Source: a bacterium (GTDB lineage Bacteria > Patescibacteriota > Minisyncoccia > Phycocordibacterales > GWA1-40-21). Taken from it: a stretch of 55,486 nucleotides of DNA. The DNA lies in NCBI GenBank assembly GCA_041308645.1, contig JBFZBC010000013.1, positions 1 to 55,486 on the forward strand, read 5' to 3'. The translations under genes and the position numbers were made by a program. Shown here piece by piece: positions 247 through 37,405 of this stretch; the stretch's first letter is position 1, and every line of letters starts with the position of its first letter. The notes below the pieces were generated by a model. The model saw only the letters and a list, made by a program, of their open reading frames with translations. It had not been told where the DNA came from and made no database searches.

Positions 247-708
247 TTATTTGTATTCCACTACCCCTGTCCTATAAATTTTAATAATACGATCTGGTAA
301 AAAATTATCTTTAAGTGATATAGAGACAGTGCCACTAGCATTAGAATAACCAGTAATTCGGCTAAAAGTAATTTGGTTAGTACTACTTCCTATTAAATTA
401 ATGGAGGATATATTAACCCGATTATTTAAAAAATATATTTCATTACTGGTGCTTGTTGGAATATAATTTATACCTTTATATAGTACAGCGGTTGAACTTG
501 AAAAATACACCCCGTATTGACTAGCAGATTCAGAGTTTAGAGCAAGAGATTTTGCCCGATCAATGATAGCAATGATTGAAGAAAGATCACGTTCGAGTGC
601 CTGAGTTTTTACTAATTTATAAAAAGAACTGATCACAATTATAAGAATTGAAGAGGAAATAATTAGAACAATTAAAACCTCAATTAAAGTAAACCCTTTA
701 TTTTTCAT
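247..708 (-). CDS. Prepilin-type N-terminal cleavage/methylation domain protein (GspH/FimT-like minor pilin)
   Basis: N-terminus is MKNKGFTLIEVLIVLIISSSIL, the classic KGFTLIE motif plus a hydrophobic helix. IDRAKSLAL resembles the GspH/FimT segment. 153 aa, immediately downstream of pilC. Confidence 0.8.
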   Translation of the reverse strand: MKNKGFTLIEVLIVLIISSSILIIVISSFYKLVKTQALERDLSSIIAIIDRAKSLALNSESASQYGVYFSSSTAVLYKGINYIPTSTSNEIYFLNNRVNISSINLIGSSTNQITFSRITGYSNASGTVSISLKDNFLPDRIIKIYRTGVVEYK

Positions 709-721
709 CTTTTTTTTATAA

Positions 722-1948
722 TTAAATAGTGTCCATTACAGAATAGATTGGTGTAATCATCGAAAAAGCAAAGAAACCTACTACAATACCAATAATAACC
801 ATTAAAACTGGTTCAATAATAGTTGATATATCTTTTGTTTTTTCCTCAACGTCAGTTTCATAATAAATAGCTACCTCCCCAAGCATCGAGGCCATACTAC
901 CTGTTTCTTCTCCAACACTCATCATTTCTCCGACAAAGGTTGGATATAATTCCGGATTACTCATAAAAATACTAGAAATAGTATCTCCTTTTTCTACAGC
1001 TTTTAGGGACTGCACTAGGACTTGTTTATAATAATAGTTATTTACGATTCCCATAACAATTTGAATAGCCTGTGCTATCGGTACCCCAGCAGAAAGAAGG
1101 GAGGACAATGTTCTAGCAACTTTAGCGGAATTTGCTTCTTTAACTAATTCCCCTACAACTGGTAACTTCATAACGACAAAATCCCGAATTCTTTTCCCAG
1201 TAAATGTTTTTAGAGAAAAGTATATTCCGAGAATAAAAACTATAACTACAGATACTGTGATGGGCCAATAAATGATCAGAAAGTCACTTGAGGAGATAAG
1301 TAATTTTGTACTAAAAGGTAATTCAGTGTTCAACTCCTTAAAGGTTAGGGTTAGACCCGGTACTACAAAAATAAACATTAGTATTCCAACAGCTATCATT
1401 ACCAAAATGATTACAGCCGGATAAATCATTGCCCCTTTAATTTTCTTTTGGAGATGATATGTTTTCTCCATTTGGATAACAACATTAGTTAAGGCCTGTG
1501 ATAGACTACCACTTTCCTCACCGGCCTTAGCAACAGAGATAAAAAAATTAGAAAAAATGTTCGGATATTTTTTTAAACTCTCACTTAAAGTTTTTCCTTT
1601 TTTGATCTCAATGTTTATGTCAATAACCACGCTTCTAAAGTGAGGGTCCTTCATTTGTCTTTCAATGACTGATAGAGCTCGGCTTAAAGACAGACCAGCT
1701 TTTGTCATGGTGGCTAGGTTTTTTGCAAAATTTATCTTTTGGATAGTTGAAACTCCTATAAGAAAACTGAAAATATTTAAAAACCTATAATAATATTTCC
1801 TAAGACCAATATTATTTATTTCCTCTGCTGATATAAGCATCCCCCCCTCAGCTTTTAACTCATTAAACAAATCAAACTTACTTTGAGACTCAGAAATCCC
1901 TTCATACTTTTCACCACTTTTTTTAATTGCTTTAAATTTATAACGCAT
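722..1948 (-). CDS. pilC: Type IV pilus assembly platform protein PilC (GspF family)
   Basis: 408 aa with a duplicated GspF-type organisation and three TM segments (e.g. MIYPAVIILVMIAVGILMFIFVVP, EPVLMVIIGIVVGFFAFSMITPIY). Stop is 1 nt from the pilB stop-start junction. Confidence 0.93.
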   Translation of the reverse strand: MRYKFKAIKKSGEKYEGISESQSKFDLFNELKAEGGMLISAEEINNIGLRKYYYRFLNIFSFLIGVSTIQKINFAKNLATMTKAGLSLSRALSVIERQMKDPHFRSVVIDINIEIKKGKTLSESLKKYPNIFSNFFISVAKAGEESGSLSQALTNVVIQMEKTYHLQKKIKGAMIYPAVIILVMIAVGILMFIFVVPGLTLTFKELNTELPFSTKLLISSSDFLIIYWPITVSVVIVFILGIYFSLKTFTGKRIRDFVVMKLPVVGELVKEANSAKVARTLSSLLSAGVPIAQAIQIVMGIVNNYYYKQVLVQSLKAVEKGDTISSIFMSNPELYPTFVGEMMSVGEETGSMASMLGEVAIYYETDVEEKTKDISTIIEPVLMVIIGIVVGFFAFSMITPIYSVMDTI

Positions 1949-1949
1949 T

Positions 1950-3707
1950 TTATTCTGAAATTACTCGCAAAATCTCCTCAATGGTTGTTATGCCTTGAGC
2001 AGCCTTAAATAATCCGTCTTCCATCATACTCATCATCCCCTCTTTTTTAGCTTGTGCATTTATAACATTATCAGCCTCTCCTTTTATTATAAGCTCTTTG
2101 ATAGTCTCCGATATCTTTAATACTTCATTAATACAAACACGTCCACTATATATATCTTCAGCTTCCACTGACTCCTTTGGTCTATAAAAAGGTATCGTCT
2201 CAATGGTATCTTTGTCTTCAATAATTTTCTCTTTTTTCAAAAAATGTAAAACCCTATCTAAATCTATAATTCTAGCCAGGGAAGTTATTTCTGATTTAGA
2301 TAACAAATATTTTTCTGTATTTTTATTTAATTTTCTAACCAACCTTTGGGCTATAACTACTTTAATAGTAGAAACAAGCAGAAAAGGCTCAATCTTCATA
2401 TCAATTAACCTTGGCATCGCTCCCGCCGCAGAGTTTGTGTGTAAAGTGGAAAGCACAAGATGTCCCGTCAAAGCAGCATTGATAGCGAGAGAGGCTGTCT
2501 CATTATCACGGATTTCCCCAACCATAATTATATCTGGATCTTGACGGACAAGGGAGCGAAGACCGTTCGCAAAAGAAAGACCGATTTCAGGTTTTACTTG
2601 AGTTTGATTTATCCTATTCATCTGATATTCTACCGGGTCCTCAATTGTAGAAATATTAACACCGGGGGTATTAAGAACATCTAATAAAGTATATAAGGTG
2701 GTTGTTTTTCCCGAGCCAGTTGGACCAGTGATTAGAATCAGGCCAGTTGTTTGTCTGACTGACTCATGTAAAATTTCTAGAGAGTCTCCGTGAAAACCCA
2801 TCATTTCAAGGGTAAAACCAGAAGCGCTCTCCCTAAGTAATCTTAGGACAACCTTCTCTCCATAATATATAGGTAGAATAGAAACACGGAAAGAGACATC
2901 CTCATCATTTACTTTTATTTTAAATCGTCCGTCTTGTGGTAAACGTCTTTCATCAAGTTTTAGGTTCGCTAAAACTTTTATTCTAGCGACAATACTAGAT
3001 GCAATGCTTTTAGGTAAAATCATGGCATCATGGAGAATACCATCAATCCGATACCTGATTAACAATTCGCCTTCTAGAACTTCTATGTGAATATCTGAGG
3101 CATTTTGAGTGATGGCATGTTTTAATAAAGTATCTAAAATCCTTATGACTGGCAAATCCTCAGCCAACTTTTTCAAATCCCCTTCTACACTAATGTTACC
3201 TTGGCCTTCAATAATATTTGATAAAGCGGCAGCATCTTTTTTTATAATATCACCAAACTCATCTCGCAAACTTTTCTGATACTGGAGAAGAGCACTTTTG
3301 ATAGAGTCACTATCAGTTAGGCGAAGTAATATTCTCAAATCAACTTTCTTTTTAATAAATTCAATAGCTGAAAGATCTTTTGTATCAAGCATTGCTACTT
3401 CTAAAGCATCACCCGACTTTCTAAAAGCAATGGCATTGTGCTTTCTAGCTATTGGCTCGGGGATAAGAGAGAGAACATTTAAATCAATCTTCTGATCTTT
3501 CAAACTGACATAGGGAATACCAAAGACATAAGCTTCTGCTCGTCTATAATCATTTTCGCTAATCCTACCGCTATTTACAAGAACATTACCAACTTTTAAT
3601 TTACTTTTACTTTCTGAAGATTCTTTTAAAGCACGGCTGTAATCAGACTCAGTTATTAAACCAGAATCAATTAAGAACTCTTTCAATTGCTTTTCCTGAA
3701 CAATCAT
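1950..3707 (-). CDS. pilB: Type IV pilus assembly ATPase PilB (GspE family) with N-terminal T2SSE_N/MshEN-like domain
   Basis: Walker A is GPTGSGKTTTLY. Asp box / Walker B is DPDIIMVGEIRD, and the His box is GHLVLSTLHTN. 585 aa. Confidence 0.95.
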   Translation of the reverse strand: MIVQEKQLKEFLIDSGLITESDYSRALKESSESKSKLKVGNVLVNSGRISENDYRRAEAYVFGIPYVSLKDQKIDLNVLSLIPEPIARKHNAIAFRKSGDALEVAMLDTKDLSAIEFIKKKVDLRILLRLTDSDSIKSALLQYQKSLRDEFGDIIKKDAAALSNIIEGQGNISVEGDLKKLAEDLPVIRILDTLLKHAITQNASDIHIEVLEGELLIRYRIDGILHDAMILPKSIASSIVARIKVLANLKLDERRLPQDGRFKIKVNDEDVSFRVSILPIYYGEKVVLRLLRESASGFTLEMMGFHGDSLEILHESVRQTTGLILITGPTGSGKTTTLYTLLDVLNTPGVNISTIEDPVEYQMNRINQTQVKPEIGLSFANGLRSLVRQDPDIIMVGEIRDNETASLAINAALTGHLVLSTLHTNSAAGAMPRLIDMKIEPFLLVSTIKVVIAQRLVRKLNKNTEKYLLSKSEITSLARIIDLDRVLHFLKKEKIIEDKDTIETIPFYRPKESVEAEDIYSGRVCINEVLKISETIKELIIKGEADNVINAQAKKEGMMSMMEDGLFKAAQGITTIEEILRVISE

Positions 3708-3725: not shown

Positions 3726-3741
3726 AAATAAATATAATAAT

Positions 3742-3771
3742 AAAAAGCTCGGTGTTTTAACCGAGCTTTTT
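3742..3771 (-). terminator. Intrinsic terminator after the 891-aa surface protein gene
   Basis: AAAAAGCTCGGT-gtttta-ACCGAGCTTTTT: a 12-bp stem flanked by A and T runs, so the shape is bidirectional. Confidence 0.7.
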
Positions 3772-3857
3772 AGTATATTGTTTTACGCTTAAAATTTTGC
3801 ATTATTTCCCGTCGAAAATCTACTGATTTCGACGCGAATTTTACGCTTAAAATTCGT

Positions 3858-6533
3858 CTACTGCTCACCAATTCCTCCACCTTGCAAGACAACGGTGGTG
3901 GTAGCGGTACATTCACCATAATGAGTACTGTTAGAAACTAATGCTTGTACTGTCTTCAAACCAACAGTACTGAAATACCTTTCTAAGATATTATTATTTT
4001 CACCAGTAACAACAGTCCCATTTACCTTCCAATCAATTCTATTAGTAGTAGAGCTAATATTCCATTCAGTTCTGGTATTTACTTGGATAGGACTAGTTGG
4101 TGGACTATTGAAGGTACAGTTTAAATTTGAATCATATGTTAGTTGGGGAATATATGGGTTACAAGTACTCGTTGTACAATTTGGATCAATTATTGATGTA
4201 CCAGGACTGCTCCCAGGAGAAGATGCTGAAGAGGAAGAAGATGCTGGCAGAGAACAAGCAGCTGTAGCTGGGCAGGTTTGAGTAGTTGAACCAACACAAC
4301 TATTTCCTCCATTGGATGGAGGGGGATTAGTACAAGTTCTAATTTGAGTACTAGCCGGTAAACCACAAGCGGTTGGGCAAGAGGCAGGACTCCAAGCGGA
4401 CCATCCGCCGTGTATTGGTGTTTGTATATTTACTGTCCAAGTAAAATCCGTACCTGGTAAAGAAATAGAATAATCATTTATATTATAATTATTAGTTGAA
4501 CCAAAACCAATACGAGTAGATATATTTCCTCCATCACAATCGGGATTATTATTATTAGGATTAGTAGCGGTTACTCTAATATCTCCTCCACTAACTGCAC
4601 AAGCATACATATTAGAATTTCCCGCTGTAAAAGTAGTACTAACGGTACTTACTCCAGCTCCTGTAGCAGTACATTTCCAAACTGTAGTATAGTTAGTTCC
4701 AGACCCTAAACTTACATCCCACTCAGTATCTGCTAAGGCTGAGTTTACTAAGACACAACTTATTTTACTAGAATCAAAATTAATAGCTGGAGTATGAGCA
4801 GGAGTTGTCATAAATAATCTACCTTCATTATCAGAAGCTGAATCAGTAAAGTTTAGAACATTATCACAATATGGTGTATCCCAATTTCCACCGGCAGTTA
4901 GAAATGTACACACAGACCTAGCTCTGACATAAAAAACATCTCCTATTTTTAATGAAGATATATCTGTAGAAGCATTATTACTATCTACATTTATCCAAGC
5001 ATCTAATCTTCTAGAAACCATAATATCGGCGAACCGTCTATCCTCCCAACCAGAGGTTCTGTAAACACTAGATGTATTACTCTGAGAAGTTGAAGGTATA
5101 TATATTTCACTAGCAGAAACCAACCCTGTCTTAGCTACAATACTGGAAATCAATGGAAATAAAGAGAAGAATAACAAAAACCCAGTCAAAGCAACTAATG
5201 GTTTGTTATTATCACTTTTTTTACTCTTGATCAAAAGGAAAATTATGATTAATAAGAACAAAACAGCAAATAGTGAGTATAGTAAAATCTTGTAATCATA
5301 ACCACTGGCTCTCATAGCATAACAAGCTTCAGAATTTAAGGTATCGCAATCATATACAGCTTGATAAGAATCAACTATTTTTCCTTCACTATCTTTTAGC
5401 TCGGCCTCTAATTTTAAATAAGTGTAATCTGATTCCGCCACGAGCTCTGCAGCTGATGCTTCAACTTGAGTCCCAATATCTGTAGTTTGAGTATTGGAAT
5501 ATAGGATATTATTCTCCTGATCCTTCAAGGTTACAGACAATACTGCATCTTTGTTTACTCCGGAAGTGGTGTGGTAAGAAATAAAGGAACTAAAACTATC
5601 CCCTTTTAATAATGGGAATTTGTTTATTGCAGAATAATTAATACGAGTCTCTGTTATATCTGAACCTAATCTAATATTAACAATAGATGTTACACCATCC
5701 TTCTCTGCTGTTACTTTTATATAAGAAACCGGTAGCTCTATTTTCTCTATATTATAAACTAGGTTAATAGTAGACTTGGCTGGTACAGTAATAGTTTCTT
5801 TTTTAGTGTTAACAAAATCCTCTTTCCTTAATGAATCCCAAGAATATAGATCATAAGTAACATCAAGTGAGATAGCATTATCACTATAATTCACAATTGG
5901 CTGATTAATAGCAACAAATGAACCAGTACTAAATGATGGCCAAGCACCAATATGGTAATATTGCGCCCCGTTAATAGTGGTCAATGTTTTATCCAATTCA
6001 AAAACTTTTTTTACATCAGTGTCTATAAAAAAATCTGAGGCTCCAGCGTTAATTTCATTTGTAAAAGGTAAACCACCTAAGTTAAACCTATTATCAACAG
6101 AGAAGAAATAATCTACTGAATATTGGCCATTATTTAAACCAGCGGGAACTGTCCAAGAAAAGTTTACTGGTAGCTGTGAGTCCGCGTCAATAGCAATATC
6201 CTCTGCTACATAGAATTCATCCACGATTTTGTAACCTTCGGACATATAGGCTCCATGGACTTCCCCCACTCGAGCAAAAATATAACCATGGACTACAGGG
6301 TAACTGTTTTTATTGTGCACTGAACCTTCAAAATCAATTACATCACCAGGTTTGTATGTTTTACCCATAGCATTGTCCCCTGTGGATACAGCAAAATCAA
6401 CACTTTGGAATTTATACAAGCCTTCTTCGCCAGTGGCTGTTCGCAACTGACCTACAGTTCCTGCCAAAAGAAGTGCTGGGGTGGAGATTAATATTGCCAA
6501 CCCCAAGAACATAGTAAAAAATATTTTTTTCAT
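3858..6533 (-). CDS. Large chimeric surface protein: signal peptide, N-terminal beta-rich ectodomain, two central TM helices, Cys-rich C-terminal ectodomain with TSP1 repeat and PKD-like end
   Basis: N-terminal signal peptide is MKKIFFTMFLGLAILISTPALLLA. TM helices lie around residues 415-436 and 446-467. Residues 711-760 match the thrombospondin type-1 repeat consensus. A Ser/Pro linker and a C-terminal Ig/PKD-like segment follow. Confidence 0.85.
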   Translation of the reverse strand: MKKIFFTMFLGLAILISTPALLLAGTVGQLRTATGEEGLYKFQSVDFAVSTGDNAMGKTYKPGDVIDFEGSVHNKNSYPVVHGYIFARVGEVHGAYMSEGYKIVDEFYVAEDIAIDADSQLPVNFSWTVPAGLNNGQYSVDYFFSVDNRFNLGGLPFTNEINAGASDFFIDTDVKKVFELDKTLTTINGAQYYHIGAWPSFSTGSFVAINQPIVNYSDNAISLDVTYDLYSWDSLRKEDFVNTKKETITVPAKSTINLVYNIEKIELPVSYIKVTAEKDGVTSIVNIRLGSDITETRINYSAINKFPLLKGDSFSSFISYHTTSGVNKDAVLSVTLKDQENNILYSNTQTTDIGTQVEASAAELVAESDYTYLKLEAELKDSEGKIVDSYQAVYDCDTLNSEACYAMRASGYDYKILLYSLFAVLFLLIIIFLLIKSKKSDNNKPLVALTGFLLFFSLFPLISSIVAKTGLVSASEIYIPSTSQSNTSSVYRTSGWEDRRFADIMVSRRLDAWINVDSNNASTDISSLKIGDVFYVRARSVCTFLTAGGNWDTPYCDNVLNFTDSASDNEGRLFMTTPAHTPAINFDSSKISCVLVNSALADTEWDVSLGSGTNYTTVWKCTATGAGVSTVSTTFTAGNSNMYACAVSGGDIRVTATNPNNNNPDCDGGNISTRIGFGSTNNYNINDYSISLPGTDFTWTVNIQTPIHGGWSAWSPASCPTACGLPASTQIRTCTNPPPSNGGNSCVGSTTQTCPATAACSLPASSSSSASSPGSSPGTSIIDPNCTTSTCNPYIPQLTYDSNLNCTFNSPPTSPIQVNTRTEWNISSTTNRIDWKVNGTVVTGENNNILERYFSTVGLKTVQALVSNSTHYGECTATTTVVLQGGGIGEQ

Positions 6534-28660: not shown

Positions 28661-31600
28661 TTATAAAGTGACTTCTACTTTATGAGTTTTCTTATCATTA
28701 ATTAGGTGTATCACATCTCCAGAAAGAGTCTCGCCATTCACAATTATTTTCTTATTTTCTTTTATTGAATTTTGATTATTTAAGATATGAATATTATATT
28801 TTGTATTTTTATGGGTATACAAAAGAGAAAAATTCTTCCAACTTTTTGGTATACATGGATTTATCTCCATTTTATTATTTCTGATTTTTATACCTAAAAT
28901 ACTTTCTAATATCGTACAGTACATTACTCCCGCTGAACCAGTATACCAAGTCCAACCTCCTCGCCCAGCTGGAGCTGGTTTAGCATAAATATCTGAAGCG
29001 ACAACATATGGTTCTACTTTATATAAGGATGCCTTTTTAATACTCTCTGATCTTTTGATTGGATTCACACTGTCAATAATTTTCATGGCTGAAAGAGGGT
29101 CATTTAACTTCGCATAAGCCTGAGCAGCCCATAAAGCTCCGTGATTATATTGGGCACCATTTTCTCTAACACCTGGTGGGTAATCTTTAATATACCCTGG
29201 ATCCATCGAGGTGTCCTTAACAGCAGGAAAAATCAATAATAATAAATCATTATTTTGGAAAAGATTCTTCATAACTGAATTCATCGCGATCTTACTTCTG
29301 TCAGTCCGTGCAACACCAGATAACACTGACCAAGACTGAGAAATAGAGTCTATTTTAAATTCCCTATTTGAAGAAGAACCTAAAGCGACTCCGTTGTCAT
29401 AAAAAGCTCGTTTGTACCACTTACCATCCCAAGCCTTTCTTTCTAAAGCAGTGGTTAAGTTTTGTAAAGTCACTTCAAATCTCTTGACTCTATCCTCGTC
29501 TCCACGATTTTTAATATATGGGGTAAATTTCTTAATAACCGCACATAAGAACCAGCCTAGCCAGACACTTTCTCCTTGCCCTTTTTCTCCTACTTTATTT
29601 AGACCATCATTCCAATCCCCATTACCTATAATAGGTAGCCCATTCTTACCGAAAACAAAAGTCTTTTCAATCGCTCTTAAACAGTGATCATATAAATCAT
29701 ACTTTTCCTTATCCACCTCAGCTATACCAGCCCAATTTGAATTACTAATAAAATCTAAAAGTGGACCCTTCAGATACGGAATTTTTTCATCAAGAATCTT
29801 AATATCATTTGTTATCTCCAAATAAAAACTTACAACGTAAGGTAACCACAATTGTTGATCAGAAAAGACTGTTCTAACTCCAAATGAATTATGTTCATGC
29901 CACCAATTTTGGACATCACCCTCCAAAAATTGGTGATGACTTGCCTTAAGAATAATTTCCTTGGTCACTTCAGGATTAGTCCAAACTAAAGACATGGAAT
30001 CTTGTAATTGATCGCGAAAACCATAAGCACCAGACGGTTGATAATAACCTGTCCGAGCCAGCAACCTAGATGACATTACCTGATGGATAAGTCTAAAATT
30101 AAATAATATATTTAGTGATTGATCAGGAGTTTTGATTTGTACTTTATTTAAAAGATTATTCCAATTTGACTCAATTTCCTTTAATGAAGAGTGATAATGA
30201 GTCAAACTTCGATATTTTGCTATAAGTTTATGGACAGCCTCTATGGAATATCCACCTCCTAATAGAGAAATAATTTCGATCTCTTCACCTGGATTCAAAG
30301 TAAAGAAGGTCTCAAGAGCAACGCAATGATCAACATCATCATGAATAATATTTGATAATTTCTCACGGTGCAGAGCGGCTGGATTATTCACATCTCCCCC
30401 TTTCCCAAGAAACTCCTCTCGATCATTGGTCACTAAGCTATTTCCAGCGTTAAGATCCACAAAAGCTAGGACTTTCTTGAAAGATTCGCTAAAAATATTT
30501 TTTACTATTATTGCTCCTGTTGTTTTATCTAGTGTCGTTTTTAAATAATCTTTATTATCTTGCCTATTTGCTCCACCAACAGACATTTCAAAAAATCCTG
30601 TTAATGATAGTTTTTTTATAATTTTAGTCGTATTAGTAAATTTGAATTTAACGATCTTAACATTATCTTCCACTGGTACATGGACAACCATACTTTGATC
30701 TATTCCCCGGCTTTTGTGTTCAAACTTCGTAAAACCTAAACCGTGGCTTACGATATAAGTATGAGGGCTCTTGATTGGTAAAGGTGTAGGGTTCCAAAAA
30801 TCTCCCGTCTCCTCATCTCTCAGATAAAAGATTTCACTGCTTCTATCAATCAGCGGATCATCAATACGTTTAGTTAAACGATTATCATAACTATCAGCAA
30901 ACCAAGTATAAGATGAACCACTTTCAGTAATAACGGTACCAATATTTTTATTAGCAATAATATTTGCCCAAGGGCAAGGAGTATAAAGTGATTTTTTATA
31001 ATTAATATTCATTTTATATTCCCGACCATCATCCGCAAAACCACCTAGACCGTTATAAAATGATAATTTATCAAGAGTTGGGTGTGTGTCTTTACTCAAA
31101 GTATTAACTTTTTTAGTGGTTTTTAAATACGGTACGGAAGCCTTAGAGTTTGATTTAGTGATTTCTAATATTTGTTGCTCAATTGTCCCAAGCTTACTAT
31201 CAATCACTACCCTTGATAGAAGGAGTAGATCTTCTTTATCAACTAATGATAGATGCGAAGCTTGAATATGGAAAACATTTCCTCTAATAGTCTTACTAAC
31301 TGTCGTCTGATTATAACGGATAAGAAAATCAACCTCATCCTCAAATGATTTAATATAGCTGGTTGGATATTCATTTAAAAGAACTAAATCATGAGCAATA
31401 CCTTTGTGTTTTAAATATTTATGACAAATAAGCATATTCTTTACCATCGCCATATCATTCATGTCATAAAAACGAACAATCAATATTGGTAGGTCACCTG
31501 AAATACCGATTCGCCACAGGGTTTGAACTTTTGCTTCATGACTGTCTTGTCTAAAACTTTTAATATCACTAGAATAATGTGGTGACAATAATCTAGAGGC

Positions 31601-34600
31601 CAAAGCTTGATATGACAAAGCTAGCTCATGTGATATTCCCAAACTATTTACAACGTCATAACTATGTTTATCTGATTTTATTATAGCCTGATTTATATGT
31701 TTTTGATTTGAATATTTTTTTAGATTATTTATCAATTCTTCTTGTGAATTACCAAAGATGTTTACGTATGTTATGGTGATCGCCTCATTACTTTTTAATT
31801 CAATCTGATTTTGGAAACTAAAAATCGGGTCAAAGTTATAACCCAAATCAGGATTTCCTTGATGGTGAGTTGGAGAAAAAATATCTGGTTGACTTAAAGT
31901 ACCCCCTCTATCAATAAACTGATTTCTATTTGTGGTATAAATAGATTCACCTTCATTATAAAGAGAAGTGAAAACCTTATGGGCTAAATATAAATTAGTT
32001 CCCCTTTTAACATTATTTGGCCTGCTGTAAACTAGGGCATTATATTTCTTCCAATATTCTGATTTTATAAACAATTTTTGGAAGGCAGTATGATGCAAAT
32101 CATCATTCGATTTTGCCAAACAGACTTCCCCATAACTAGTAATATTTAATGTTTTAGCTTCTTTGTGGTGATTGGTTAAGGTTAGTATCCGAAATTCTAC
32201 ATTACTATCTGGAGCAATAGCTATAGTTAAAGAGCTTTCAATATTATTATGAATCTTAATAAATCTTGCTTTATTTTCAAAATATTCAATTTTATTTTTA
32301 CCCAAAGACACACCAGTTGGTCTAGTGGTTGGAGACCAAAGATTATTTTTATTTTCATCATATAAATAAATAAATTGCCCCCAAGTCTCTGCCACCGTAT
32401 CTTCCCTAAACCTTGTTAAATTTATATCAGCAACTCGACTCCCTCCCGCTCCAGTATTACTTACATCCACAAAATAAGAGCCATTGGAAATAAATGCCCG
32501 TCTTGGATATGAAGTATATAAAGGAATGAACTGTTTTACATGGACATCATTGTTCCCAGTGGTTACATATTCTGCCTGTAAGTGATCTATACTTTTTATG
32601 GGACGAGCTGGTATAGAGGATGGTATTTTTTCTTCAAAAATTGTGTCCAAAGCTTCCACTCGAGGGTCTGAAAGAAAAAGTGAATGCACTCGCTCGTGAT
32701 TAACCTGATTATTTAAAGACTGAAGAGAAAAACCTTGATGGTGAGCATAATATATTTTTGCTGGTACACCAACACTATTCTGACTACCGTCCTCTAATTT
32801 TGCTCCATAATCAATTGCATCATAAAAACCATAACGTCCCATAAACTTTGACTTGATCATTTTTCTCATATTTAAGGTTGCTTCTTTTGGTTTAAACGCC
32901 AAGGAGAGTACGGTAGTATACGGTGCAACAACAAGATAATCCTTAAGGTCACGCTTAAGACCAAGCTCTGGGTGGCCAAAAATCTGGTATTGATAATTAT
33001 TATTTAAATCCAAAGCGGAATATGCTGACTCTCCCATTCCCCAAGGAATCTTATACTTTTTACCATACTTAATATGCGCATTTATAGCAACATTTGCCGT
33101 GCGACCAAGTAATGACTCTTTATGTACTTTGAAAAATATCAGAGAAGTTAAATATTCAAAAAGTGAGCCACCCCAAGATACCAAAGAGATGTTTTTTTGA
33201 TCAAGTTGGACAAGTTTTCTACTCAAATAAAACCAATGCTTTATCGGTACATCATTTTTCAAAACGGCCATAAAACTGATGGCATTGGCCTCTGACGCTA
33301 AAAAGTCATAATAATAGTTATCGATTTTTTCTAAAATAGCGTTATAACCAATATGAAACAAACCACGCTCTTCATTATACAAAAAGGCAAAATTAGTTTC
33401 ATCAACAAACTTATTGGCCAAAGAAACAATATGTAGAAATTCATTTTTAATTTTTATTGCATGATTTTGGGCATGAGTAATATGGGTAATAACTTGATGA
33501 TACCATTTCTCAATATTTTCCTTCTCATCATTATCTAGACTAGCAGAATGGATGAGATTTATAAAAAATAAATCCTCGATTTCACATTTGAGCTGTCCAT
33601 TTAAAGTCTCAAGGGAGGGAATAATATCTAATTTTGAACAAATATTTTTAAGCGTTTTTGCTAGATGAGAATTCCTTTTTTCATTTCTGATAACTGGTTT
33701 TGCCAGACGGTCCTGATTATAAAACATAAAAACAGCAAGCTCATCTATTTGCTGCTTAAGTAATGTATTAAAATGTTCAATACTAGAATATATACTAGAC
33801 AAAATTCCCTTGCTAATTCCAAGATTCAAATTACTTACTATTCTTTTCATCTTCTCATTACTTTCCGTCAAATCATTTAAAACCTTACTTACACATTCGA
33901 TAGATTCTAGTTTATCAATAATCTTTATTTTTATAAGAATCTGACGAGCCTCATTATATATACCTCTAACTGCCTTTCGGTCTACCTTTATAACACCTCG
34001 TTCATTCATAATTAAACAGGCATCATCAATCAAACTATTTAAAATATCCTCAAAACCAACAAAGCTAGCTTTACTGATAATTGGTTTTCCTATGATATCC
34101 AAAATCCCCTGTTTTAAGGTTATTAGGTTTAATAATAAATTTGCACTATCTACACTTGAAACATATTTAGGGTTTAGAGGTTGTAAAGTACAAATATCAT
34201 ACCAGTTATAAAAGTGCCCTTTGTAACGCTCTAAATGATCTAGACTTCTAAAAGAAGAAGTTAAACGCCATAATAAGTTAGACAAACTTATATAACCTAA
34301 ATCATAAGCAGAAAAATTACCTAAAAGATGACAACCAATATTTGTTGGTGATGTGGCGGAACGAGAATTTGTGACTGGTTCTTCCTGATAATGATCCGGA
34401 ATAAGGTAATTATTGTCTCGACGGGCCAACTCTAGGAAAAAGCGGGCTGAGCGGCAAGCCACCCCTCTTAAAAGCTTGGTATCACTTTTTTTATACTGAA
34501 ATACTTTTTCTTTTCGACTTATATGATAAGCAACTAATGGAGAAATAAACCAAAATATAGTTGTAAAATATGGTGAAAAACTGTCATGAAAACTAAGTAA

Positions 34601-37405
34601 AATAAAAACTAAAGCTAGTGCGATAATTTGAGTAGGAAACATCATGATAATAAACTCGCGTAATGTTCCTTTTAAATTTTTAGCTACTTCATGGGAGTTT
34701 TGCCAAAGTAACATATTTTTGTGTCTAAAATTCATTCTATATATTGAGATAGAAATAGCCCTCAAAGAAATAATGGCCTGATCAAGAAGAAAGATGAAAC
34801 GATAAATTATCTGCCATATAACCGAGTCTAAATTATCAAATAAATTATTTATCTTCATGAGCAGAGTCATCTCCTTTGGCCACTCAAACAACTTGATGAT
34901 GTAGGAAATAATAAATGAAGAACCGATAACCAATAGGATATAAACAAAAGAATAAATGTAATAATCATGGAAAAATAGATAAGAAAATACTAGGAAAAAA
35001 ATAGCAAAGATTGGCAAAGTACTTCTTCTCAAATTATCAAATATTTTCCATTTATCAGTGATATCAAAATTATTATTTTTTAACTTATTAAACTTTAGCC
35101 AACTGATAATCTGCCAATCCCCTCTAATCCAGCGATGCATCCTTAAAATATATTCCTTATAACTATCAGGAAAGCCTTCAAACAGATATATATCAGTAGC
35201 AAAACCTACTCTAGTATAAAGACCTTCAAGTAAATCATGACTTAAAACCTGATTCTCTGGGATTCTGTCCCCGATTGTTGCTTCCATAGCGTCCACATCA
35301 TAAATTCCTTTACCAAAAAACAAACTGTTATTGAAAAGATCCTGATAAACATCAGCTCCTGGACCAGTATATGAATCTATTCCAATGGAAAAAGAAAATA
35401 AACGTGAAAAGATTGTGGCACGAGCTAAGTTAAACTTTGTGGTCATCCTAGGCTGAATGATTCCATAACCACTGATTACTTTTCCTTTTTTCTCGTCCAA
35501 AATAGGCCTATTAAGTGGGTGGTCAATACAACCAATTAATTTTATAGCAGAATCTTTTGGTAAACGAGTATCTTCATCAATCGTTAAAACATATTTGATT
35601 GATGGTAGATCTTTAGGTAAAGCTTCAAAATAAGAAGTTGGTCTTATATTTCTTAATAATAAATTAAACTCTCTTAATTTACCTCTTTTTCTTTCCCAAC
35701 ACATGAAGGTATTCTCATTTGGATTCCAAATCCTTCGACGATGGAATATATAAAATCTGTCTACTTTTGCTTTGTATTTTTTATTTAATTCCCTTATCCC
35801 TTCATTCATTTGCTCCACTAAAATCTGATCAGATGTAGTGGTCTCCATCTTTGAATCCTTAAAATCCATCAGTAAAGCAAAATAAATATTCTGGTCTGAG
35901 TTACTTAGAAAATTTACTTCCAACCGCTTGAGTAGCTCCTGTGAATTTTTACTATCCCTTAGCATTGATGGTATGACAACAAAAGTACTCTGCCTTAATT
36001 CAACCCCTGAAGAAAGATCTAGCTGAGGTAACATACGAACTGGGATAAATGAAACGACAGAAAGATTTATCAGGTTAATTACTATGTCACAATTAAGAAT
36101 AAAGACTAAAATGAATAAAATAATAGAAAAAATATTTAACCCAAAAATATTTGGGAACAAAATAACTAGACTGGTGGTCAGAATTATATCTACTAGTAAG
36201 ATTAAGCCAAGATAAAAAAGAGGCGCCTTACTTAAAACAAAAGATCGTAAAATTTCTAGAAAAGGTTTTTGATAACCAATTTTTTTTTCTAGTTCATTAC
36301 GTCCTTCACCCACTAGGTAATATCCGATATGGTTCTCAGGATTATTATTCTCTTGAGAAACAACTGAAGTATGACACAAACGTAAAGCCAGCTTTGCGAC
36401 CTCAGACTCATAAACGCCTGCTCTATCACTGATTTTAACTAGCTCATTTCTATAAGCCGCTTGACTTGCTTGATCTAAAGTACCATAAGCTTCCGCTGGA
36501 TCCTTTAATAAGAAGGAATCCACAATATTTATATCTACAACAAAATTATCCCAACGTACTTGATTTATCCAACGCAAACTATTTATTATATTTAAAATTT
36601 GATTTGAGGTTTCTGTTTGATATTTATTTTCTATTTCAGCCAAGTTGGAAATATTTATCCCTTGTTTAAGTAAGTTTAGTTTTAACCATTTTACTATCGG
36701 TCTGGTATCTGGACCATATTGAGAAAGTCTTTGTAAAAGATTAAAACCTAGATTAACTGGAATAACACCATATTTACTTGCCAGATTTGATGTTATTTGA
36801 GAATAATTCTTTTCCTTATCTTTTGATTTCTTTTTTACTATTTGGTCAAACCAATCCTCGGCATCTTTATACTCATTAAGAGAAACAATGGCTTTATGCA
36901 TCAAACTCTCAGTGTTTTTTATTAAAATAATCCTTAAGAAAAAAGGTACAAAACTTAATTCCCTAATAGAAAGATGGGCCTTCGCTTGGTAAGCACGTAA
37001 AAAAGTATATAGCACTTCCTTATCGATTTTATATTCAGAGACCTTCAATAATTCGACTAAAATAGAATAAATTCTAGGAATATAGATATTTGGAGTTATT
37101 TCAATCTGAAATAATTTTTTAAAACCCTTATCAACTGATGTATTTGTAACATCGGAAATAGCACTATCAATAATGTAATAGTTATCAAATAAGTTTTCAA
37201 CTTCGTGAGTCAAATGCTTATTTAATCTAACTAAATTAATAAGTTTTTTGTAAGTATTCTTAGTTTGAGAAATACTCTTATTAATAAACGACAAAAAAGA
37301 CTTGGCCTTTTCTGGCTTAGAAACAATAAATACTTTGGCACCTAAAACGTGAGCTTTTTTTCTAACTTTATTAATAAGCTCAATATCTTCCTTGATAATT
37401 TTCAT
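28661..37405 (-). CDS. Cyclic beta-1,2-glucan synthase-like giant protein (membrane GT84-type transferase plus GH94 glycan phosphorylase-like C-terminus)
   Basis: 2914 aa. A TM cluster at about 395-460 is followed by a GT domain (TIDEDTRLP, HRWIRGDWQ). A second TM cluster at about 790-960 follows. The C-terminal (alpha/alpha)6 GH94-type region has GYYQPSGAYGFRDQLQDS, NGDWNDGLN and GGWTWYTGSAG. Confidence 0.85.
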   Translation of the reverse strand: MKIIKEDIELINKVRKKAHVLGAKVFIVSKPEKAKSFLSFINKSISQTKNTYKKLINLVRLNKHLTHEVENLFDNYYIIDSAISDVTNTSVDKGFKKLFQIEITPNIYIPRIYSILVELLKVSEYKIDKEVLYTFLRAYQAKAHLSIRELSFVPFFLRIILIKNTESLMHKAIVSLNEYKDAEDWFDQIVKKKSKDKEKNYSQITSNLASKYGVIPVNLGFNLLQRLSQYGPDTRPIVKWLKLNLLKQGINISNLAEIENKYQTETSNQILNIINSLRWINQVRWDNFVVDINIVDSFLLKDPAEAYGTLDQASQAAYRNELVKISDRAGVYESEVAKLALRLCHTSVVSQENNNPENHIGYYLVGEGRNELEKKIGYQKPFLEILRSFVLSKAPLFYLGLILLVDIILTTSLVILFPNIFGLNIFSIILFILVFILNCDIVINLINLSVVSFIPVRMLPQLDLSSGVELRQSTFVVIPSMLRDSKNSQELLKRLEVNFLSNSDQNIYFALLMDFKDSKMETTTSDQILVEQMNEGIRELNKKYKAKVDRFYIFHRRRIWNPNENTFMCWERKRGKLREFNLLLRNIRPTSYFEALPKDLPSIKYVLTIDEDTRLPKDSAIKLIGCIDHPLNRPILDEKKGKVISGYGIIQPRMTTKFNLARATIFSRLFSFSIGIDSYTGPGADVYQDLFNNSLFFGKGIYDVDAMEATIGDRIPENQVLSHDLLEGLYTRVGFATDIYLFEGFPDSYKEYILRMHRWIRGDWQIISWLKFNKLKNNNFDITDKWKIFDNLRRSTLPIFAIFFLVFSYLFFHDYYIYSFVYILLVIGSSFIISYIIKLFEWPKEMTLLMKINNLFDNLDSVIWQIIYRFIFLLDQAIISLRAISISIYRMNFRHKNMLLWQNSHEVAKNLKGTLREFIIMMFPTQIIALALVFILLSFHDSFSPYFTTIFWFISPLVAYHISRKEKVFQYKKSDTKLLRGVACRSARFFLELARRDNNYLIPDHYQEEPVTNSRSATSPTNIGCHLLGNFSAYDLGYISLSNLLWRLTSSFRSLDHLERYKGHFYNWYDICTLQPLNPKYVSSVDSANLLLNLITLKQGILDIIGKPIISKASFVGFEDILNSLIDDACLIMNERGVIKVDRKAVRGIYNEARQILIKIKIIDKLESIECVSKVLNDLTESNEKMKRIVSNLNLGISKGILSSIYSSIEHFNTLLKQQIDELAVFMFYNQDRLAKPVIRNEKRNSHLAKTLKNICSKLDIIPSLETLNGQLKCEIEDLFFINLIHSASLDNDEKENIEKWYHQVITHITHAQNHAIKIKNEFLHIVSLANKFVDETNFAFLYNEERGLFHIGYNAILEKIDNYYYDFLASEANAISFMAVLKNDVPIKHWFYLSRKLVQLDQKNISLVSWGGSLFEYLTSLIFFKVHKESLLGRTANVAINAHIKYGKKYKIPWGMGESAYSALDLNNNYQYQIFGHPELGLKRDLKDYLVVAPYTTVLSLAFKPKEATLNMRKMIKSKFMGRYGFYDAIDYGAKLEDGSQNSVGVPAKIYYAHHQGFSLQSLNNQVNHERVHSLFLSDPRVEALDTIFEEKIPSSIPARPIKSIDHLQAEYVTTGNNDVHVKQFIPLYTSYPRRAFISNGSYFVDVSNTGAGGSRVADINLTRFREDTVAETWGQFIYLYDENKNNLWSPTTRPTGVSLGKNKIEYFENKARFIKIHNNIESSLTIAIAPDSNVEFRILTLTNHHKEAKTLNITSYGEVCLAKSNDDLHHTAFQKLFIKSEYWKKYNALVYSRPNNVKRGTNLYLAHKVFTSLYNEGESIYTTNRNQFIDRGGTLSQPDIFSPTHHQGNPDLGYNFDPIFSFQNQIELKSNEAITITYVNIFGNSQEELINNLKKYSNQKHINQAIIKSDKHSYDVVNSLGISHELALSYQALASRLLSPHYSSDIKSFRQDSHEAKVQTLWRIGISGDLPILIVRFYDMNDMAMVKNMLICHKYLKHKGIAHDLVLLNEYPTSYIKSFEDEVDFLIRYNQTTVSKTIRGNVFHIQASHLSLVDKEDLLLLSRVVIDSKLGTIEQQILEITKSNSKASVPYLKTTKKVNTLSKDTHPTLDKLSFYNGLGGFADDGREYKMNINYKKSLYTPCPWANIIANKNIGTVITESGSSYTWFADSYDNRLTKRIDDPLIDRSSEIFYLRDEETGDFWNPTPLPIKSPHTYIVSHGLGFTKFEHKSRGIDQSMVVHVPVEDNVKIVKFKFTNTTKIIKKLSLTGFFEMSVGGANRQDNKDYLKTTLDKTTGAIIVKNIFSESFKKVLAFVDLNAGNSLVTNDREEFLGKGGDVNNPAALHREKLSNIIHDDVDHCVALETFFTLNPGEEIEIISLLGGGYSIEAVHKLIAKYRSLTHYHSSLKEIESNWNNLLNKVQIKTPDQSLNILFNFRLIHQVMSSRLLARTGYYQPSGAYGFRDQLQDSMSLVWTNPEVTKEIILKASHHQFLEGDVQNWWHEHNSFGVRTVFSDQQLWLPYVVSFYLEITNDIKILDEKIPYLKGPLLDFISNSNWAGIAEVDKEKYDLYDHCLRAIEKTFVFGKNGLPIIGNGDWNDGLNKVGEKGQGESVWLGWFLCAVIKKFTPYIKNRGDEDRVKRFEVTLQNLTTALERKAWDGKWYKRAFYDNGVALGSSSNREFKIDSISQSWSVLSGVARTDRSKIAMNSVMKNLFQNNDLLLLIFPAVKDTSMDPGYIKDYPPGVRENGAQYNHGALWAAQAYAKLNDPLSAMKIIDSVNPIKRSESIKKASLYKVEPYVVASDIYAKPAPAGRGGWTWYTGSAGVMYCTILESILGIKIRNNKMEINPCIPKSWKNFSLLYTHKNTKYNIHILNNQNSIKENKKIIVNGETLSGDVIHLINDKKTHKVEVTL

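Follow-up and report, generated by a model that had tools for sequence, protein, structure and literature searches.

Can a bacterium with a very small genome carry, on its surface, an adhesion module of the animal type, and if so, where did the module come from and what does it do there? A gene near one end of the 55,486-nucleotide stretch analysed here (the window; contig JBFZBC010000013.1 of assembly GCA_041308645.1, lineage Patescibacteriota; Minisyncoccia; Phycocordibacterales; GWA1-40-21) raises this question. The gene, on the minus strand at 3858..6533 with its stop codon included, encodes a surface protein of 891 residues, found in the open reading frame list, whose homologues are 28-37% identical, one of them named Candidatus Paceibacterota. 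The original prediction, made from the nucleotide sequence alone, had recognised a thrombospondin type-1 repeat (TSR) in it and had placed the protein in an organism with a reduced genome, which agrees with an assembly of 614 kb that is 95.5% complete. Our joint explanation, which we consider probable, is that this is a genuine group-1 TSR, displayed outside the cell on a protein anchored by two helices, acting as a stalk or adhesion unit, and derived from a pool of prokaryotic TSRs. To the little that has been learned of how ultra-small episymbionts identify their hosts and stay attached to them, the gene adds a well-supported example of an adhesion module of the animal type on a surface protein of the Candidate Phyla Radiation (CPR).

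Identity and predicted fold of the repeat

Translation of positions 4254-4403 on the minus strand gives WSAWSPASCPTACGLPASTQIRTCTNPPPSNGGNSCVGSTTQTCPATAAC, which corresponds to residues 711-760. These coordinates are as originally proposed; as minor discrepancies, the original prediction named no strand, and the string quoted in it also took in the two preceding residues, G709 and G710. The profile match reaches back to residue 706 (window position 4418). The six Cys residues (719, 723, 734, 746, 754 and 760) have the register of C1-C6 in the second and third TSRs of thrombospondin-1 (TSP-1 TSR2/3, group 1), and the same register is found in 52 of the 63 prokaryotic TSRs that make up our alignment A3. 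The WSxWS, CG, RTC and NPxPxxGG motifs also align with TSP-1 TSR2/3. The layered Cys-Trp-Arg core is present in a reduced form, consisting of W711 and W714 together with Q730 and R732, while a third Trp and a second Arg are missing, just as in the prokaryotic consensus. A phmmer search with the excised 79-residue domain against 177,635 PDB sequences returned the TSRs of human thrombospondin-1 with an E-value of 2.2e-16 (best single-domain E-value 5.5e-8), followed by UNC5 (UNC5B/D), ADAMTS13, properdin, C6-C9 and BAI1. Residue-for-residue matches to these PDB repeats cover GGW..WSP, C..CG and R.C.NP.P..GG..CVG.

We modelled the repeat with AlphaFold2 (AF2) using the alignment of 63 prokaryotic TSRs, which gave a mean predicted local distance difference test (pLDDT) score of 84.4. 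The 26 best Foldseek matches of the model in the PDB were all TSRs, from properdin, ADAMTS13, thrombospondin-1 (1lsl), UNC5 and C6-C9, and the first 13 of them had probabilities of 0.99-1.0, TM-scores (TMq) of 0.48-0.59 and sequence identities of 42-45%. The modelling that the original prediction had proposed as a check is, as to the overall fold, in its favour, and the repeat is predicted to adopt the elongated three-stranded TSR fold. Within alignment A3, Cys1 is absent from 9 of the 63 repeats and Cys5 is absent from exactly the same 9; neither is lost singly in any repeat. This joint loss fits the C1-C5 disulfide of thrombospondin-1, as far as co-variation between sequences can indicate. 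The predicted disulfides of the window TSR are C719-C754, C723-C760 and C734-C746. As a separate observation, the nine repeats (at loci L034, L036, L039, L045, L058, L062, L070, L072 and L075) constitute a four-Cys variant, in which Cys1 is replaced by Lys, Ala or Arg together with the replacement of Cys5 by Tyr.

Several results weigh against our interpretation. With the Pfam TSP_1 profile (PF00090, curated cut-off 21.6 bits) the whole protein scores 16.3 bits (E-value 0.011) and stays below the cut-off. The profile search proposed with the original prediction thus gave a divided answer, since the excised domain (21.7 bits) and the genome search (21.6 bits) do reach the cut-off, if marginally. 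The short length of the domain keeps the Foldseek E-values modest, between 4e-3 and 1e-1. The nine variant repeats may all descend from one ancestral event, in which case the coupled loss of Cys1 and Cys5 would amount to one observation only. Co-variation lends no support to the C2-C6 and C3-C4 pairs, because these Cys residues are essentially invariant in A3. Could the resemblance, then, be due to chance or to convergence in a low-complexity stretch rich in Cys, Gly and Pro? The sub-threshold score of the whole protein and the biased composition of the region are what such an explanation could draw on. It would have to account for the PDB match at an E-value of 2e-16 with its position-by-position agreement, for a confident TSR-like model, and for at least 78 loci that make up one coherent family with a common Cys register. 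We regard it as effectively refuted by the phmmer search of the PDB, the Foldseek matches and a score of 69 bits with a prokaryotic TSR profile (see below). Since Pfam alone is marginal and phmmer against the PDB is unambiguous, the assignment rests on more than Pfam. Residues ~706-760 are a genuine TSR, and the proposal of six Cys residues placed almost position for position on the TSP1 consensus agrees with the phmmer search, the predicted fold and the Cys co-variation alike.

Distribution and source of the repeat

To express the rarity of TSRs in bacteria as a frequency, we screened genomes with both profiles. PF00090 scored above its cut-off in 6 of 401 Patescibacteria genomes, which contain textbook repeats in several different architectures, and the prokaryotic profile from A3 at E<=1e-6 identified 3 of 400 other Patescibacteria genomes, none of them in the window's order. 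These frequencies are lower bounds, as the Pfam screen missed the window's own genome (G000, in the phylum run) and G536, which carries a window-like sub-variant. The control phylum has genomes of 2-6 Mb; 350 of its genomes other than the seed genome (G531) contained no full-length TSR, and over all 351 the cut-off was reached only by the seed genome and by one partial match of 20 positions. TSRs are present in roughly 1-1.5% of Patescibacteria genomes; they occur sparsely but repeatedly, with a concentration in lineages that have small genomes. The repeat is rare in bacteria, as had been claimed, and it is not unique to the window. A single nine-residue pattern, [SG]T[QI][TI]RTCTN, derived from a four-sequence alignment (A2) and run over 185,579 species genomes, led to 78 confirmed prokaryotic loci with the same Cys register, a biased subset of the whole. 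By record title, ~47 of these belong to the CPR, 4 to DPANN archaea, 5 to Rickettsiales, and 2 each to Omnitrophota, Bdellovibrionota and Planctomycetales, with several from metagenome-assembled genomes (MAGs) called 'proteobacterial'. Such titles need caution: a 1.1-Mb MAG titled 'uncultured Gammaproteobacteria' (G530, locus L060) was placed in the window's own phylum, and the taxon labels of TSR-bearing MAGs are not all reliable. The window TSR lies within a subgroup of prokaryotic repeats for which Pfam TSP_1 already gives scores above cut-off in other genomes. Our searches of the open-access literature returned no study on type-1 repeats in the CPR; the one CPR-related paper found concerns type-3 repeats.

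The repeat is an accessory module in the protein that carries it. The protein belongs to a large family defined by its N-terminal domain (described below), and the prokaryotic TSR profile matches 4 of the 153 family members examined: the window protein, P0005 as its orthologue, and a further two whose versions, at the C-terminus, are reduced. Other members have, at the same place, a four-Cys unit with the pattern CGxANG..WxWxC or PKD-like modules. Conversely, other prokaryotic TSR proteins resemble the window protein solely in residues ~640-860, and mostly in 700-780. By these sequence comparisons, the TSR is a shuffled module in its host family. The four-Cys unit is itself a small module, CGxANG...(P)T..LC..G.....W.W.C.G.NGG....C, which is seen in the variable region of P0003, P0006, P0007, P0012 and the L023 protein and has no Pfam match; in the L023 protein it lies alongside tandem TSRs.

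The orthologue P0005 (1039 residues) is encoded in a syntenic locus (L017) with the gene order H+-PPase, NusA, X, pilB, pilC and pilin. The orthologue and the window protein are collinear, with identities of 37% in the N-terminal half, 56% in the TSR and 35% in the C-terminal domain. The retention of the TSR in a collinear, syntenic orthologue implies that the repeat is older than the split between the two lineages. We compared possible sources by profile scores and identities rather than by phylogeny, as 50 residues resolve poorly. With a reference profile of 61 prokaryotic TSRs, from which the window protein and P0005 had been left out, the window TSR scored 69 bits, human TSP-1 TSR3 50 bits and TSR2 36-37 bits. 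The identity of the window TSR to prokaryotic repeats is 47-59%, compared with 42-45% to animal repeats.

These data bear on whether the repeat was captured recently from a eukaryote, as host mimicry, or is a chimera of the assembly. TSRs in the literature are overwhelmingly eukaryotic, and an identity of 42-45% to animal repeats is in line with such a source. Yet the repeat is in frame within a bacterial open reading frame, with bacterial homologues for the parts on both sides; its GC content at third codon positions (0.231) is identical to that of the whole gene (0.230); it has been kept in an orthologue that is merely 37% identical overall; it is closer to prokaryotic than to animal TSRs; and the contig also codes for NusA, H+-PPase, trigger factor and pilus genes. 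The overall GC content of the TSR stretch is raised (0.51, against 0.34 for the window) because of its amino-acid composition. The equal third-position GC, the TSR-keeping orthologue and the higher prokaryotic scores and identities together make recent eukaryotic import or an assembly chimera very unlikely. The original prediction had allowed for domain acquisition. This stands in the sense of a module gained within the host family, and the data favour an old gain out of a prokaryotic pool over a fresh eukaryotic import.

A bolder proposal is that TSRs form a shared, laterally exchanged attachment toolkit of episymbionts and predators with reduced genomes (CPR, DPANN, Rickettsiales-like, Omnitrophota and Bdellovibrionota), that this pool is old enough to have been the source and not the recipient of the eukaryotic TSR, and that the window TSR is a determinant of host-cell recognition. 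We put this forward as a speculation that is quite unlikely to hold as a whole.

The host protein and its genomic setting

The rest of the protein indicates how the TSR would be displayed. Residues 1-25 (MKKIFFTMFLGLAILISTPALLLAG; 6459..6533, minus strand, as are all parts of the gene) form a hydrophobic segment resembling a signal peptide in a hydropathy scan, with cleavage predicted from sequence. A conserved N-terminal ectodomain of an uncharacterised family follows (residues 31-405; 5319..6443; alignment A4), with a Cys396-Cys404 pair at its end. Transmembrane helix 1 (residues 416-435; 5229..5288; hydropathy maximum 3.19) leads into a basic loop, KSKKSDNNKP, from which helix 2 (residues 446-467; 5133..5198; maximum 2.11) would take the chain back to the outside. 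Next is a membrane-proximal ectodomain (residues 470-705; 4419..5126) with a GGxWDTPxC motif, which is found in 44 of the 153 family members examined, and three Cys pairs. It is partly collinear with P0005, the first BLASTP block of which extends through residue 556, and it had no match in a PDB sequence search. The TSR is followed by a Ser/Pro-rich linker (residues 761-785, SLPASSSSSASSPGSSPGTSIIDPN, from the translation; 4179..4253) and by a C-terminal β-rich domain (residues 786-891; 3861..4178), which is 35% identical to the C-terminus of P0005 and ends in GEQ. This domain likewise had no match in the PDB sequence search, and we provisionally assign it a PKD/Ig-like fold; two paralogous proteins have sub-threshold PKD matches in this region. 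A single-sequence AF2 model of residues 668-891 was unusable (pLDDT 35), and the linker lies in its low-confidence region.

With a signal-like segment and two helices joined by a basic loop, both large halves of the protein are predicted to be outside the cell, held by a two-helix membrane hairpin. All 18 Cys residues map to the ectodomains, outside both helices. A DsbA-like protein of the thioredoxin fold, anchored in the membrane and with CPFC as its active site, is also encoded in this genome (78.5 bits; G000 contig C26:851-1294, locus L099) and is likely the oxidase for the many extracellular disulfides; a search of the genome for a VKOR partner found none.

The N-terminal domain of ~375 residues is the defining part of a large family that has no named member and had no Pfam or NCBIfam match in profile scans. 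A profile built from 12 members (A4) detects at least 1210 representatives of clusters at 50% with E<=1e-3, 813 of them at E<=1e-30. Against the PDB this profile gave only a non-significant hint of the macroglobulin (MG) domains of complement C3 (E-value 0.07). Family proteins range from 450 to 1965 residues, and the domain is always N-terminal. Short members (~460-510 residues) end just past helix 1 with a basic tail, while long members have the second helix and a variable ectodomain. As the short members stop after helix 1, the long form looks like a type-I anchored N-domain fused to a second, signal-anchored ectodomain. The distal end of this family is rebuilt from small Cys-rich modules, which makes the family a plausible place to seek determinants of host specificity. 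We also observed a penultimate Glu at the C-terminus (...IEI, VEQ, EEI, QEI; here GEQ, window 3861-3872) in 65 of 134 long members and 1 of 19 short ones, which may be a sorting or processing signal. What is new in the window is the combination of a TSR with this uncharacterised family of two-helix surface proteins; the TSR itself is neither unique nor mechanistically surprising.

Downstream of the gene and on the same strand (247..3707) are genes for a PilB-type ATPase (1950-3707; Pfam T2SSE), a PilC-type platform protein (722-1948; Pfam T2SSF) and a 153-residue pilin with an N-methylation motif (247-708; Pfam N_methyl). This raises the possibility that the 891-residue protein is a dedicated component of a type IV pilus, for instance an adhesin at the tip or a factor for assembly or anchoring, whose TSR would serve pilus-mediated attachment. 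The gene is directly upstream of pilB-pilC-pilin, the arrangement is repeated in the syntenic locus L017, and type IV pili are reported to drive episymbiosis in Saccharibacteria (PMC11623550). The protein itself speaks otherwise: it has no N_methyl match at E<=10 and lacks the N-terminal methylation motif of a pilin or minor pilin, and many family members consist of the N-domain and one helix only. A perfect palindromic hairpin with a 13-bp stem, TAAAAAGCTCGGT(N6)ACCGAGCTTTTTA (3741..3772), terminator-like on both strands, lies between the TSR gene and pilB. Five further family members (P0004, P0006, P0007, P0009 and P0011) at four loci are encoded between fusA (EF-G), which precedes them, and rplJ (L10), which follows, away from pilus genes. 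Because of the hairpin, the missing pilin motif and these relatives, we judge a dedicated pilus component improbable, and the adjacency is lineage-specific with a weak link to function. The description of the protein as pilus-adjacent is thus correct for the window and for the one syntenic orthologue found, and does not extend to the fusA-rplJ members.

Some other features of these loci deserve mention. The fusA-rplJ position, within a ribosomal-protein cluster (L019, L020, L101, L102 and L103), is unusual and conserved for a surface-protein gene, and one genome has three tandem paralogues of the N-domain family at this site. Elsewhere in the window, an open reading frame of 2914 residues (28661-37405, minus strand) has the layout of a cyclic β-1,2-glucan synthase, with GH94 supersandwich and catalytic domains and a glucoamylase-like domain; it takes up 1.4% of the 614-kb genome.

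Proposed role and comparison with known repeats

From the sequence of the protein we propose the following as the most likely role. The TSR would be an elongated three-stranded module of ~50 residues, held by three predicted disulfides around a reduced Trp/Arg core. It would be exposed on the cell exterior, within the variable distal region of a protein anchored by its two-helix membrane hairpin, and would serve as a single interchangeable unit for stalk or adhesion, stapled by its disulfides. Solved TSRs are ~5 nm long, and the window repeat may form a rigid unit of about this length. Together with the Ser/Pro-rich linker, it could hold the C-terminal β-domain off the membrane and so contribute to the cell-surface contacts of an episymbiont-type bacterium. 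The repeat would have been drawn from a pool circulating among prokaryotes, mainly in genomes with CPR titles, and gained by domain shuffling before the window lineage split from its syntenic relative. The topology, the formation of the disulfides and the stalk or adhesion role are what we infer, in contrast to the identity of the repeat.

The objections listed above for the fold have two counterparts for the role. We infer the stalk or adhesion role by analogy, from TSR proteins of animals and apicomplexans. In addition, the window TSR has one Arg, no Lys and no third Trp, so the positive groove with which animal TSRs bind glycosaminoglycans is probably absent. The second point also bears on whether the TSR might instead be a specific binding site for a host glycan or protein, as the TSRs of TRAP or thrombospondin-1 are for heparan sulfate and CD36, and not mainly a spacer. 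Animal and apicomplexan TSRs are adhesive (PMC3417536), and most records with prokaryotic TSRs bear the titles of lineages that live attached to cells or depend on hosts (CPR, DPANN, Rickettsiales, Omnitrophota and Bdellovibrionota), as such a function might lead one to expect. Against it, the repeat has a single Arg, no Lys or acidic residues, CPTACG in place of CSVTCG, and no third Trp, and the residues best conserved across the prokaryotic TSRs (GTQTRTCTNPxPxxGG) occupy structural positions of animal TSRs. A specific ligand-binding site is a possibility we consider rather unlikely, and a stalk or general adhesion module is rated above it because the repeat appears to lack the basic groove of glycosaminoglycan-binding TSRs.

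Among known systems, the TSR adhesins of apicomplexans (the TRAP, MIC2 and CSP family) offer a parallel in that a cell attaching to another one carries the repeat on the extracellular part of a protein anchored in its membrane (PMC3417536). Their TSRs are of group 2, with a different Cys arrangement, and come with vWA domains, a gliding motor and glycosylation, none of which was seen in the window protein. The group-1 repeats of animals, represented by thrombospondin-1 TSR2/TSR3 (PDB 1LSL, 3R6B and 7YYK), UNC5, properdin and ADAMTS13, are closer. They have the same six-Cys register, a length of ~50 residues at 42-45% identity, WSxWS on strand A, an Arg before Cys3, the NPxPxxGGxxC 'jar-handle' and an elongated three-stranded fold, which for the window TSR is predicted. 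The window TSR differs from these repeats in having only two of the three Trp residues, a Gln and an Arg (Q730-x-R732) where they have RxR(xR), and no Lys, acidic residue or basic patch. The CPTACG at the position of the TSP-1 CSVTCG motif has Ala instead of Ser/Thr before Cys2, so the O-fucosylation site CxxS/TCxxG of eukaryotic-type modified TSRs (O-fucosylated and C-mannosylated) is absent; the modifying enzymes were not searched for. As a further difference, the window TSR occurs once in its protein, a bacterial membrane protein with two helices, and scores at the Pfam threshold.

The closest relatives are the prokaryotic TSRs, with the consensus NGGWSxWSxCSxxCGGGTQTRTCTNPxPANGGxxCxGxxSQSCNTQxC and record titles from Patescibacteria, DPANN archaea, Rickettsiales, Omnitrophota and Bdellovibrionota. 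The window TSR shares with them 47-59% identity and the same core of two Trp residues and Q-x-R. It departs from the consensus in two extra residues before Cys1 (WSPASC) and in a longer loop between Cys2 and Cys3 (GLPASTQIRT compared with GGGTQTRT), and this window-type sub-variant is common to P0005, L021 and L023. The window TSR and its prokaryotic relatives are also used in the same way, each being one of the shuffled modules of Cys-rich surface proteins.

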